Part shown: positions 12,390-38,889 of the stretch, in pieces | Numbering within the stretch: position 1 is the first letter of the stretch | Layout of the letters: every line of letters begins with the position of its first letter | Origin: Eledone cirrhosa | Lineage: Eukaryota | Assembly (NCBI GenBank): GCA_964016885.1 | Contig: OZ024743.1 | Coordinates: 319,610,001-319,674,000 of the forward strand | Direction of reading: 5' to 3' | Length of the DNA stretch: 64,000 nucleotides | Made by a program: the position numbers and the translations under genes | The notes under the pieces: model-generated | What the model saw: only the letters and a program-made list of their open reading frames with translations | Told to the model about the DNA's origin: nothing | Database searches by the model: none

Positions 12390-14127
12390 TCTGTGTGTGG
12401 GGGCGTATCATGGATCATTCTAAGGGATATATGTGATAATGATGAAAATAGATATTGTAGATATTCTCTTTTTACCCGATGTGTGTTCCCTTCGATATAT
12501 TCAGAATACTGGTTGTTATATAATTACAAAGTTCATGGCATGGGTTGGCAGTATAAGTAGAGCATCGGATACCATGTTTCGTGGCATAAATTTACCGCCC
12601 TTTACGTACTGATTTCGAATCCCTCTGAAATCAGCTTTCCCCTTCATCCTTACGTGGTCGATAAAATAAAGTACCAGTAACGTACTAGGGTCGATTTAAT
12701 CGACTTTCCCCTCACCAAAAATTGTTGGCCTTGTGCTTAAATCAGAAGCCATATATATATACATAGTCTAATTATCCAACACCTATGTTCGATATAATTT
12801 ATTTTTATTTAGTTATGACTTTCTCTAACTGTTTCAGTACTTCATTCAATTACAATCACACGAACTTACGTAATATATGTAATTTTATGAAGTCCGCTTA
12901 TAAATGTTGGACTTCATAAAATTACCTATATTACGTAAGTATTAGAATGACGTAATTAAATAAAGAGAAATGTCCCAGAAAGAAAGTTCTTGTGATATTT
13001 ATATATATATATATATATATATATATATATGCATTGAACCACAAAGTTACTAAGACAAAACCTATATATTTGCTAGCATTGATATGCATCTGTATGTATA
13101 TATATGTTACTAGATATATTAATTCTTTATAATTATCTCCAAATTATTTGTCGAGCAATATTGGCCAAGACTGCTGCTATGGTAGCAGGCAGGCCGCTGT
13201 CTTCTTAACAAACCACTTTCCACTGATTGACCTCGATGTCACGTGATTGATTCTTTTTGAATTTGCCACCGACGCAGTAGGCAGTGATTTTTTCAATGGT
13301 TAGGAATTCAGTCCACGCTTTGCTATTTTCTATCCACTGAATTATTTTTGTATAAGTTTCCAGAGTCCACGCTTTGCCTGGATACTTAGCTGAGAATAGA
13401 CTTCCCTGACGACGAAATGATTCTCTATATTTTCTTCGGAAAAATTTTAGTAAGTAAGTTAATTTTATAATTTTCTTATTTTACGTCTCTCATATATATA
13501 TATATATATATATATATATATATATATATATATATATATAGAGAGAGAGAGAGAGAGAGAGAGAGAGGTGGTGAGAAAGACACACACACACACACACACA
13601 CACACACACACACACACACATATATATATATATATATATATATATATATATATACATTCCTGATGATTTCATATGAATGAAACAATTCTAGTCCTGTAGC
13701 AGTCATTTTTATATAAAATAAAAAATGTCTATACTCTACCATTGTATTAAATAACTTTTTAACTGTGATCACCTCCCCACTCAGACACAACTCAGGGATC
13801 TACATACTATATATATATATATATATATATATATATAGTACGTCAATACTCATCTTTTTCCATTTCTTAGAGGGTTCATATGTTCACTATCAGGCTAAAA
13901 TGTCTTTAGTCAAAAATACGGCGAAAGCTTCTATTTCTAATTTCAAACTTGCTCGGTCTTTCAAAACAAACTTGCTTGTCATATATATATATATGTGTGC
14001 GCGCGCGCGTGTGTGTATGTGTGTGTGTATGTGCGTGTGTGTGTGTATGTGTGAGTGTGTGTGTGTATCCCGGGTTCAATAGGGGGTAGCCACAGTAAGT
14101 AAGGTACTCAATACATAGCAAAGTATA

Positions 14128-14593
14128 AATATTTAATATAGAAATGGCTTCTACAGGACTAGAACTGTTTCATTCGAAGGAAATCATCAGGAAAGTCGAC
14201 TGTCAATATGATATGGTGGTATTTATACATTTTCTGGTGGTAAGGAAAGGTGATGATTAGGATGGGTGGAGGTCATTGGCTGATGGATTTAAAGAATGGA
14301 GGTTCTTTGAAAAAACTATACTTAGAGATACAGAATGAACCTTGAAAATTACGAGTGCCTGCATTTGTATCATTCTGTATCACTATGTATTTTTCTCTAA
14401 GTATAGTTTTTTCAAAGAACCTCCATTCTTTAAATCCATCAGCCAATGATCTCCACCCACCCTAATCACCACCTTTCCCTACCACCATAAAATGTATAAA
14501 TACCACCATATCACATTGACAGTCGGCTTTCCTGATGATTTCATTCGAATGAAACAGTTCTAGTCCTGTAGAAGCCATTTCTATATTAAATAT
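14128..14593. repeat. Fold-back inverted repeat with arms of about 200 bp (Penelope pLTR-derived), each arm with a hammerhead-like motif
   Basis: 14128-14328 is the reverse complement of about 14394-14593 with few mismatches. Confidence 0.9.
14525..14576 (+). ncRNA. Hammerhead-like motif (inverted copy at 14146-14197 on minus; related copy near 13657-13705)
   Basis: GGCUUUC-CUGAUGA-UUUCAUUCGAAU-GAAA-CAG(UUCUAGUC)CUG-UA^GAAGCC. The base of stem II is an atypical U-U. Confidence 0.55.
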
Positions 14594-15216
14594 ATATATA
14601 TATATATATATTGGTAAACCGAATAGAAAATGCTGACAAATTGTTCACAGTGAAAAATAGTTTAATTAGGAATAAATGAGAATTAGTAATTGTATTGGTT
14701 AGTATTCAGTTTTGGTTTTAAGTTTTACCGGTTGCGCATTTCTAAATGCTTTTCAAAAATAATTTTGAGATAGAGCGTCCGTGATGTTTGGTCTGATCTG
14801 ATTAGTTTTGGGAATTCTACCTGTTTTTATGTTAAAAAGTGGCTCCAGCGCTATTAAAATTGGTTTTTGCGCCAATTCGTGTTGCAAAAATTCTTGTGGT
14901 CAAAACAATTTTGATTGGTCGGTAGAGGTCATGTGAATGTAAAAAATTGATTTTGCGCCAAGACTGAGAAATGACTCTTTCACAACAAATATGTGTGTGT
15001 GTGTGTAGTAGTAGTAAAGTGTTCGTTGTTGTGATAATGGTTAGCAGGGATGTGTGTGCGAACCGCAGCCTGTTGACAGTTCAAATGCCTATTAAGACAA
15101 GTGTGTGTGTGTGTGTGTGGGTGTATGTGTGTGTGTGTGTGTGTGTGTGTGTGTGTGTGTGTGTGTGTGTGTGTGTGTGTGTGTGTGTGTGTGTGTGTGT
15201 GTGTGTGTGTGTGTGT

Positions 15217-15453
15217 GTGTATAGCAGAGTAATTAGTGGTAGAGGGATGGTCAGTAGGAATGTGTCTGTAAGTGAGTGGGGGATATTTTAACATGTTAAA
15301 ATATATTTTTCAGCTCTTGTCTTATACGGAGAAGTGTGTGTGTGTAGCAGAGTAATTCGTGGTAGACGGATGGTCAGTAGGAATGTGTCTGTAAGTGAGT
15401 GGGGGATATTTTAACATGTTAAAAGATATTTTTCAGCTCTTGTCTTATACGGA
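15217..15453 (+). repeat. Tandem direct duplication of about 120 bp between (TG)n and (TA)n
   Basis: TAGCAGAGTAATT...CAGCTCTTGTCTTATACGGA occurs twice. Confidence 0.85.
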
Positions 15454-15561
15454 TATATATATATATATATATATATATATATATATATATATATATATAT
15501 ATATATATATATATATATACAATATATTAATAAATGGAAACTATATTTATAAAACCATAAT

Positions 15562-15627
15562 TATTTTATTATATATATTTCAAGGGCGACCAAGGTAAAT
15601 TAAGGTGCGCTTTCATCAGATAAAATA
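15562..15627 (-). ncRNA. Type I hammerhead ribozyme
   Basis: UAUUUUAU-CUGAUGA-AAGCGCACC...GGUCGCCCUU-GAAA-UAUAUA-UA^AUAAAAUA, with an 8-bp stem I and an intact core. Confidence 0.75.
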
Positions 15628-36714: not shown

Positions 36715-36985
36715 CTGATGATGTTGTTCATGATGATGGTGGTGATGATGATGATGAGGGTGTTGTTGAAGATGATGATGGTGGCGGTATTGTTGTTGAT
36801 GATGATAATGTTGATGATGACGACGACGCCGATGATTATGGTGATGATGCTAATGACGACGACGATGATGATGAAAATGTTGATGGTCATGATGTTGATG
36901 ATGATGATGACGACGACGACGACGACGACGATGATGATGATGATGATGACGATGACAATGATGATGATGATGTCAGCGACGATGT
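36715..36985. repeat. (GAT/GAC)n trinucleotide tract within a SINE
   Basis: SINE family A sequence (minus strand) lies on both sides of the tract. Confidence 0.85.
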
Positions 36986-37074
36986 TAATAGACGTTAAGT
37001 GGCGAAATAAATAGCGCAAAGCATTATTTCCGACGCTCTACCAGTTCAGCCAGACCACCACCCTTATAATTATT

Positions 37075-37595
37075 TATGCACATACACACACACAGCACAC
37101 GCATAATCACACACACATATACATGCATATACACATAAACAGTGCACGCATCATCACACACGAGTACACACACAGCAAATGCCTATGTACACACACAGTG
37201 CACGCATGCGTACGCGCACGCAGCACGCATAATCACACACGTATATACAGGCAGTGCATACATTAACACACACGCAAGTTGCACGCATAAACACACATAA
37301 CGCGCTCATAAACACACACACAGCGCACTTATAAACACACACACAACGCGCTCATAAACACACACACAGCGCATTTATAAGCACACACATAGCGCACTCA
37401 TAAACACACACACACACACATACACACAGCACACACATAAACACACACATACAGCGCACTCATAAACAGACACACATAGCGCACTCATAAACACGCACAC
37501 ACACACACACACACATAGCGCACTCATAAACACGCGCGCACACACACACTCACAGCGTACTCATAAACACACACTCACAACGCATTCATAACCAT
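37075..37595. repeat. CA-rich minisatellite (CACAGCGCACTCATAAA-like unit)
   Basis: Recurrent GCGCACTCATAAACAC units. Confidence 0.8.
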
Positions 37596-37953
37596 TTGCG
37601 TCTAACGTACGCATCTCCACACACGTTACGCACAGTCACGAGAACATGCACACACAAACGACTGTAGCATTTTACCATTACACATACAGAGGTGTGTACA
37701 TATTTATACGCACACTCACAAAGAATCACGTATATACAGATAGAGAGAAGCAAGTATAAAGAAACACAACACAGTGTTCACCCGGTATCGTAAAAATGAG
37801 AAAATTAAAGCCGTAAATAAGTCCTGTCGTACACTTAAAAGTTTATATTATACACACACACATACACACACACACACACACACACACACATATACACACA
37901 CACATATATATATATATATATATATATATATATATATATATATATCCACAAGT

Positions 37954-38032
37954 CCGATGAGCTATGGATTCCAGTGTCGGGCCCGATCGATACCGATTCT
38001 ACCTTCAGTTGATCGATCGCGAAACGCGCGTC
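37954..38032 (+). ncRNA. Degenerate hammerhead with an extended stem II
   Basis: CCGAUGA-GC...GAUCGAU...AUCGAUC-GC-GAAA-CGCGCG-UC, followed by AATAAA. Stem I does not pair. Confidence 0.4.
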
Positions 38033-38889
38033 AAAAGTGAATAAACATAAATGTTTCTACTTTTGGCACAAGGCCAGCAATTATCCAATAAACATAATGA
38101 TGCTATATTGAAACCATGTTCCTGCTACGCCCGCCGAGGTTGACTTTGCCTTTCATCCTTACGGAGTCGATAAAATAAAGTACCAGTAATGCACTGGGTA
38201 TTTGTGGCCTTGTGCCTAAAGTAGAAACAATTATTATTCGCCGAGGTTGACTTTGCCTTTCATCCTTACGGGGTCGATAAAATAAAGTACCAGTAATGCA
38301 CTGGGTGATTGCTGGCCTTGTGCCTAAAGTAGAAACAATTATTATTCGCCGAGGTTGACTTTGCCTTTCATCCTTACGGGGTCGATAAAATAAAGTACCA
38401 GTAATGTACTGGGTAATTGCTGGCCTTGTGCCAAAAGTAGAAACAATTATTATTATTATTAACACACTGCCTCATAAGGCTACCGACTACGGTAAAAGTA
38501 CTCCGCAAACAAACCCATATAGCCATTAAGTGGTCAAACGGCTGAAACAAAAGTAATTAAACGTTACATACCAATAATCTATACACACACACACATACAC
38601 ATACACACACATATATATATATATATATATATATATATATAAAGAGAGAGAGAGAGAGAGAGAGAGAGAGAGAGAGAGAGAGAGAGAGAGAGAGAGAGGG
38701 GGGAGATGTAAAATCCCAACCGCGGCGCCAAGTGGTTTCGCTAGTGCATTGAGTACTCCTATGGTTAGTGGTCTCCTCGGTCTCAGCACCCTAGACTGAC
38801 TCTCTCTCTCTCTCTCTCTCTCTCTCTCTCTCTATATATATATATATATATATATATATATATATATATATATATATATATATATATAT

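Follow-up and report, generated by a model that had tools for sequence, protein, structure and literature searches.

The long intron of GCH1 in the octopod Eledone cirrhosa raises the question of whether the pre-mRNA of a host gene is cut by ribozymes that lie in its introns. The window considered here is a stretch of 64,000 nucleotides (nt) from contig OZ024743.1 of assembly GCA_964016885.1 (positions 319,610,001 to 319,674,000 of the forward strand), and all coordinates below are counted from its first letter. A preliminary description of this window had proposed that the GCH1 pre-mRNA must traverse several sense-strand self-cleaving hammerhead ribozymes, and that co-transcriptional cleavage could sever the intron. 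In our analysis the pre-mRNA meets a single plausible cleavage cluster, a trimer of a 469-bp unit predicted to cut 25-26 kb before exon 2. The hammerheads are probably cargo of Penelope-like elements (PLEs) and of their non-autonomous derivatives; the trimer would be a young retrozyme, and its cleavage would be slow or partial, with GCH1 output little changed.

The gene was located by a six-frame motif search together with direct reading. Coding exon 1 (39534..39876, minus strand, 343 nt, ATG at 39876) matches PF01227 above the cut-off and is 89% identical to residues 1-114 of the Octopus vulgaris GCH1-like isoform X2, the best named relative. Exon 2 (242..351, minus strand, 110 nt) is 97% identical to the same protein from residue 115, and later exons fall outside the window. 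The two exons account for the O. vulgaris protein as far as residue 151, with 1-114 in the first, 115-151 in the second and no gap between them; both exons are intact and conserved. Between them lies a GT-AG intron of 39,182 nt (352..39533, minus strand), so that a minus-strand GCH1 with an intron of about 39 kb, as first described, is borne out. An AG follows a short pyrimidine run just 5' of the ATG (39877-39900), from which an upstream non-coding exon is possible.

Hammerheads were sought with a strict type I descriptor, which required an exact core, a helix I of at least 4 pairs, a helix II of at least 3 pairs and a palindromic or paired helix III. Six hits were obtained over both strands of the 64 kb, whereas 40 block-wise dinucleotide shuffles yielded 0.1 hits on average and never more than 1. 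Five of them (cores 26753, 26284, 25815, 15619 and 14190) had been listed in the preliminary description, and the sixth is a plus-strand mirror copy (core 14532) that was absent from its list. Sites are named here by the positions used in that list, which mark where helix I ends on its 3' side, 6-11 nt beyond the cut. CUGAUGA and GAAA, the letters of the core, are found on the minus strand at all six sites previously called intact. They are not six independent intact ribozymes, because three are copies of one unit, the site at 21014 is damaged and that at 14146 lies in an inverted repeat.

The site at 21014 was missed by the strict descriptor; a relaxed scan added its core at 21089 with a score of 11 (0.1 such hits per shuffle, 20 shuffles). 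The relaxed scan also added 18429 with a score of 8.5, which is in the chance range (2.45 hits scoring at least 8 per shuffle), and it missed the sense copy 14190 yet retained its mirror. A descriptor requiring a pair at 10.1-11.1 misses the site at 14146. Allowing a U-U at this position recovered the site, in a different register that gives helix III 4 bp, and the view that it lacks helix I was dropped. The sites at 27122 and 12820 were recovered by neither the strict nor the relaxed scan. Among plus-strand candidates, 8990 and 16006 from the relaxed scan were rejected for scores in the chance range, and 13406-13449 (exact core, score 11, ambiguous) was not accepted, its helices being unconvincing by eye. 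Nothing hammerhead-like was seen at position 38040. An Rfam scan of the window gave no hit at the gathering score, and the three tandem copies match HH9 (RF02275) at 32.4 bits, the gathering cut-off being 52. An Rfam scan by E-value returned mostly microsatellite matches to miRNA models, which were discarded as compositional.

The sites at 26716, 26247 and 25778 are one young insertion. Tandem Repeats Finder (TRF) delimits 3.0 head-to-tail copies of 469 bp, with 98% matches, at 25560..26963 on the minus strand, sense to GCH1. A complete type I hammerhead is present in all three units: in copy 1 at 26689..26796 (core C3 at 26753, cut after 26723), in copy 2 at 26220..26327 (core 26284, cut after 26254) and in copy 3 at 25751..25858 (core 25815, cut after 25785). 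Six positions vary among the copies, and at 5 of these only copy 2 differs. All six lie outside the middle 76 nt of the ribozyme, a stretch that is identical throughout. Since the copies differ at these positions, an assembly artefact is thought unlikely. The trimer is bounded on its upstream side by a (TA)35 tract (26962..27031) and on its downstream side by an (AT)39 tract (25482..25560); because it is embedded in (TA)n, no target duplication can be read.

In the ribozyme of the trimer, the cut follows a GUC triplet, helix I has 7 proximal bp and extends to 33-34 pairs, and helix II has 5 bp opened by G10.1-C11.1. Helix III amounts to a single A-U pair, capped by a four-base loop that is palindromic. 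Predicted pairing probabilities in all four contexts tried were 0.86 for helix I, 0.98 for helix II and 0.00 for helix III. The ribozyme aligns to all 77 positions of the HH9 model, including the helix I bulge, with the helix III loop gapped. The helix I bulge and loop 2 presumably form a tertiary contact.

A monomer, taken from one cut to the next, measures 469 nt; it is 37% GC and non-coding, its longest stop-free frame being 84 codons, and no endless open reading frame was found in the 469-nt circle. It is strongly self-paired. The linear form is predicted at -157.7 kcal/mol, compared with -98.6 +/- 4.8 for shuffled sequences (z = -12.3; none of 100 shuffles was as stable), and the circular form at -153 and -160, compared with -95 +/- 5 (40 shuffles); alternating-purine palindromes contribute to this self-pairing. 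On the sense strand of the unit no A or B box of RNA polymerase (Pol) III was found, by a scan that is itself weak (a control short interspersed nuclear element, or SINE, gave an A box and no B box). Moreover, three runs of four or more T in the unit would stop Pol III. Because no Pol III promoter is recognisable, the trimer would be transcribed as part of the GCH1 pre-mRNA.

The nearest precedent, together with the Penelope family, is given by the animal non-LTR (long terminal repeat) retrozymes of axolotl (Rtz331/HHR_Amex1), newt (satellite 2), mussel and coral described in PMC7229834; definitions were taken from that paper and from 10.64898/2026.07.22.740005. Like these elements, the trimer is arranged head to tail with one type I hammerhead per unit, has a GC content below 50%, lacks LTRs and coding capacity, has a highly self-paired monomer and coexists with PLEs. 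Its helix III of one pair and a palindromic tetraloop is that of HHR_Amex1 as described. Its unit of 469 bp is slightly longer than the 150-450 bp of the retrozymes first described (PMC7229834), and is within the 51-972 bp range given in 10.64898/2026.07.22.740005. Unlike the known retrozymes, it has an octopod as host. A literature search, with subscription papers and relevant supplements largely outside its reach, found no report that deals with this locus or with retrozymes from cephalopods.

The 469-bp unit could instead be a locally amplified PLE terminal repeat (pLTR), acting in the same way and not mobilised through circles. Retrozymes are proposed in 10.64898/2026.07.22.740005 to arise from pLTRs by local amplification, and a PLE adjoins the upstream TA tract. 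The array is almost exactly 3.0 units long, and a single pass round one circle is disfavoured because 5 positions set copy 2 apart from copies 1 and 3. However, the unit resembles neither the terminal repeat of the adjacent PLE nor any other PLE end in the window, its ribozyme is canonical and not minimal, and its monomer is strongly self-paired. We consider this origin quite improbable. A region beside the site at 21014 (20730-20960) has a weak, largely low-complexity similarity to parts of the unit and is possibly an old relative of it.

From the cut sites of the trimer, 25.4-26.4 kb remain to be transcribed before the acceptor, which takes 7-26 min at 3.8-1 kb/min (3.8 kb/min is taken from PMC2995048 and the slower elongation rates are assumed). 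With 25-26 kb still to be made, cleavage before exon 2 is plausible for the trimer. In the transcription window, published in vitro rates would allow an Amex1-like monomer to cut 0.7-2.7% of transcripts and an Amex2-like one 3-10%. These rates were obtained at 37 C, and we take it that the source animal lives colder than this.

The outcome should hinge on dimer formation between neighbouring copies, since helix III matches the description of HHR_Amex1, whose axolotl monomer, with one pair and a palindromic tetraloop in helix III, cleaves 6% in 1 h and whose dimer is efficient (PMC7229834). Base rates call for caution: in PMC4209133 single minimal PLE hammerheads are described as showing no cleavage and their dimers low cleavage, and one of nine Xenopus retrozyme dimers is reported to cleave in vitro (10.64898/2026.07.22.740005).

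What cutting would do to the gene is a separate question. Introns cut by a hammerhead are reported to be spliced as well as intact ones, whereas a fast hepatitis delta virus (HDV) ribozyme blocked splicing (both second-hand in PMC2995048). In a zebrafish intron, the non-engineered parents N79, N107 and N117 gave a less than 3-fold reduction (PMC11856399), and the zebrafish test introns may offer a shorter window than the 39,182 nt of GCH1. Intronic retrozymes are common, at least in Xenopus, where 42-44% of copies overlap introns (10.64898/2026.07.22.740005).

Several points weigh against slow or partial cleavage with little effect on GCH1. The ribozyme of the trimer is canonical, and its helices I and II are predicted to be stable in every context tried. 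At a mussel-like rate (0.1/min), 50-93% of transcripts would be cut before exon 2 is made, and at a coral-like rate more than 99%. The strand-swapped double hammerhead of copies 1 and 2 is predicted to be less stable than the free ensemble by 9.0 kcal/mol and than two open monomers by 3.4 kcal/mol, values that include no tertiary terms; by nearest-neighbour energy, the dimer is thus predicted to be accessible and not favoured. A second full locus of the 469-bp unit was not found within the 64-kb window, which gives no sign that the unit is mobile. In zebrafish, an engineered fast intronic hammerhead is reported to lower mRNA 13.6- to 20-fold, 13.6-fold for alb (PMC11856399), and inhibition of the CPEB3 ribozyme raises CPEB3 mRNA and protein according to PMC10274809. 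Furthermore, the Xenopus retrozymes are described as depleted in introns relative to their size (10.64898/2026.07.22.740005), suggesting a cost of carrying them there.

Such points could be met by an unselected attenuator, in which the trimer cuts most GCH1 pre-mRNAs before exon 2, output falls and host transcription feeds 469-nt circles. Output would fall through 5'-3' decay of the downstream piece or through loss of exon 1, and the insertion would be recent, possibly polymorphic and mildly harmful. The stable, context-independent helices I and II, the three copies available in cis as dimer partners, the 7-26 min of transcription remaining and the knockdown by a fast intronic hammerhead speak for it. 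So do constructs described in PMC2288634, in which RNA downstream of a ribozyme cut is degraded 5'-3' while the upstream piece stays tethered, and RNA flanked by two ribozymes mostly comes free of Pol II. However, helix III has one pair, the dimer fold is not favoured, only one in nine frog dimers was active, the usable rates come from 37 C in vitro, and in the construct described in PMC2288634 a ribozyme alone left the run-on profile unchanged. On this balance we hold the attenuator to be unlikely, though far from negligible. That the trimer is an active promoterless retrozyme, cutting most GCH1 pre-mRNAs 25 kb before exon 2 and shedding 469-nt circles with lowered GCH1 or piecewise splicing, is likewise rather doubtful. 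If it were true, GCH1 would be measurably lowered, or a natural 39-kb intron would be routinely spliced in pieces.

The reading we prefer keeps the trimer most likely as a tolerated passenger, with attenuation of GCH1 and release of 469-nt circles from the host pre-mRNA as a possible consequence. PLEs and their non-autonomous derivatives would have inserted repeatedly into (TA)n tracts of this long intron, which is full of repeats, and the trimer would be transcribed within the GCH1 pre-mRNA. Its ribozymes would be weak as monomers, because helix III has only one pair, and would need two copies that join by their palindromic loops and exchange strands of helix I. Two neighbouring cuts would then free a 469-nt monomer, which a host ligase could circularise. 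In the nucleus, cleavage would be slow or partial and cut transcripts would mostly still be spliced, so that GCH1 output would change little. The severing of the intron during transcription that was put forward earlier is a real biological mechanism, as the systems above indicate, and remains plausible for the trimer; here it would be limited to one cluster of uncertain speed and would not act at several sites.

Some of the remaining hammerheads were traced to PLEs. Three remnants with reverse transcriptase (RT) or GIY-YIG sequence lie in the intron, each with a hammerhead remnant at its terminal repeat. A truncated PLE at 18350..20590 (minus strand) retains the RT C-terminus and GIY-YIG remnants at 20590-19825, detected by tblastn of RT-GIY-YIG proteins. 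The 18385 hammerhead (18429-18392; core CCGAAGA, U4 to C) ends its 3' repeat. A second PLE, at 27032..30229, has an inverted 5' part, with RT at 28266-27562 (minus) and RT-GIY-YIG at 28261-29414 (plus), and it carries its terminal repeat both ways (27594-27109 and 29767-30229). The minus copy of the repeat bears the 27122 hammerhead (core position 27215, core CUGGAAA with two changes, cut 27129), and in the plus copy the hammerhead core is deleted. The third remnant, at 31390..33201 (minus), has GIY-YIG sequence at 33201-32821 and a degenerate hammerhead-like end near 31424 that was not in the earlier list.

The assignment of the 27122, 18385 and 31424 elements to the Penelope-like class rests on the RT then GIY-YIG layout of homologues (the 7 used of 9 found), a weak PF01541 match, known motifs and the inverted structure, which is described for PLEs in 10.1101/2021.04.23.441226. 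A Pfam search of the RT homologues matched no RT family, and a PDB search with the RT fragment gave no meaningful match. The elements resemble the hammerheads of endonuclease-bearing (EN+) PLEs described in PMC4209133 in several respects: the 3' repeats of RT-GIY-YIG elements carry remnants, helix III is short and palindromic, there is an association with microsatellites, and solitary truncated copies occur, as do inverted pairs whose members, on opposite strands, are spaced 100-700 bp. Unlike the hammerheads of that paper, the 14146 and 27122 families have a helix III of 4-5 bp, a monomer-type design. Of the degenerate sites first described, 18385 and 27122 are thus recognisable remnants by context, whereas 12820 (12810..12862, minus) was rejected as a hammerhead, as it has core-like letters and GAAA but no helix I.

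Two further PLE-related sequences were observed. An 87.6%-identical copy of the terminal-repeat end of the 27122 element lies at 38833-39028, 500 nt past the GCH1 donor, with the core absent and the helix III hairpin lengthened into a perfect fold-back. Upstream of GCH1 and on the opposite strand, a minimal hammerhead-like motif with a helix I of only 2 bp (46456-46490, plus) ends another Penelope-type remnant at about 44182-46580 (plus).

The sites outside both the trimer and the recognisable PLEs appear dead or nearly so, as do the PLE ends themselves, through mutation, isolation or predicted sequestration in a duplex. In the solitary hammerhead of site 15562 (15541..15646, minus; core 15619, cut after 15570), the core is intact and helix I has 8 bp; helix III is palindromic and AU-only, and helix II, with A10.1-U11.1, is weak (probability 0.54). 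The damaged hammerhead of site 21014 (21014..21101, minus; cut position 21025) belongs to the same family; an 18-nt duplication of the core start (21055-21092) is present and helix I is broken, with 1 contiguous pair at the junction. The two ribozymes of this family (cores 15619 and 21089) lie 5.5 kb apart, share the helix I 3' strand and have compatible helix III palindromes, and a strand-swapped heterodimer of them is conceivable.

Site 14146 lies in an inverted repeat of 475 nt (14124..14598, 89.6% self-match) with one hammerhead per arm, the sense one with its core at 14190 and cut at 14152 and the antisense one with its core at 14532 and cut at 14570. In the sense ribozyme helix II starts with a U-U, and helices I and III have 4 bp each. 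The two arms are predicted to pair in a 200-pair duplex of -342 kcal/mol, and the arm complementary to the sense copy is transcribed first. The predicted cost of the active fold is 11 kcal/mol alone and 77.5 kcal/mol in context. An antisense remnant of the same family is found at 13654..13767 (plus, core 13660), in which a (TA)n tract truncates helix I. Therefore, of the several self-cleaving ribozymes proposed for the pre-mRNA, sense-strand hammerheads are indeed present and only the trimer stands as a strong candidate, the others being solitary, mutated or sequestered.

Of the 12 hand-placed intronic hammerhead sites, 11 lie at most 230 nt upstream of a (TA)n tract, compared with 18% of random positions; the 230-nt threshold was set afterwards and mirror pairs are not independent. 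Such proximity is expected for elements with the microsatellite or AT-rich target bias described in 10.1101/2021.04.23.441226 and PMC11167929.

It was also considered whether the hammerheads are domesticated regulatory ribozymes that tune pterin synthesis in the manner of CPEB3 or HH9/HH10, which had been cited as precedents. As in those cases, the GCH1 hammerheads are intronic and on the sense strand, and the type I architecture of the trimer resembles HH9. By hand count, sense orientation prevails among independent intronic insertions with hammerheads (about 7 sense, 1 antisense and 2 inverted pairs). However, the bias is not significant (P = 0.07-0.34, depending on how inverted pairs are counted), and the sense excess is a lead only, as the search for degenerate plus-strand sites performs no better than chance level. 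If it held genome-wide, octopod introns would tolerate, even attract, sense-strand ribozymes. The majority of sites are in decay, those still intact are young repeats nearly identical to one another, and the hammerheads stem from at least five unrelated families. The HH9 score is 20 bits below the cut-off, and unlike HH9/HH10 the trimer lacks a stable helix III.

The precedents themselves differ from the motifs seen here. The amniote intronic hammerheads are described as single and conserved across classes (PMC6155905, PMC7761336), and the CPEB3 ribozyme has an HDV-like fold, which is different from a hammerhead. HH9/HH10 and CPEB3 are single, conserved and monomer-competent, whereas the GCH1 motifs are borne by repeats, as mobile-element ends and a young tandem repeat, and are young or decaying. 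Nothing points to a domestication of the CPEB3 or HH9 kind, which we regard as very improbable.

As annotation, a member of a retrozyme family and several Penelope remnants in a repeat-rich intron are ordinary. The locus offers more as a natural test, since a young, intact, sense-strand ribozyme trimer is followed by a long transcription window in the gene of an enzyme with a simple metabolic readout. It bears on whether host pre-mRNA is cut by ribozymes that transposons carry, on whether splicing over tens of kb withstands such cuts, and on whether host genes supply retrozyme circles.

Other repeats were noted across the window. The regions upstream of GCH1 at 47005-52680 and 59830-64000 contain several broken non-LTR retrotransposons with endonuclease and RT frames. 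A tRNA gene search found no tRNA gene in the window; a tRNA-derived SINE-like family is abundant (38130-38456, 16935-17303, 21195-21388 and 9569-9755) and in places tandem (108-bp x3, 84-bp x3). A second repeat family occurs at 25273-25488, 5834-6083 and 35910-36159. Finally, a 297-bp inverted repeat (92%; 24763-25051 and 30868-31164) brackets the block formed by the trimer and the large PLE. Together with the arms at 27.1 and 30.2 kb, it could form long intronic duplexes, which would be candidate substrates for A-to-I editing in a cephalopod.

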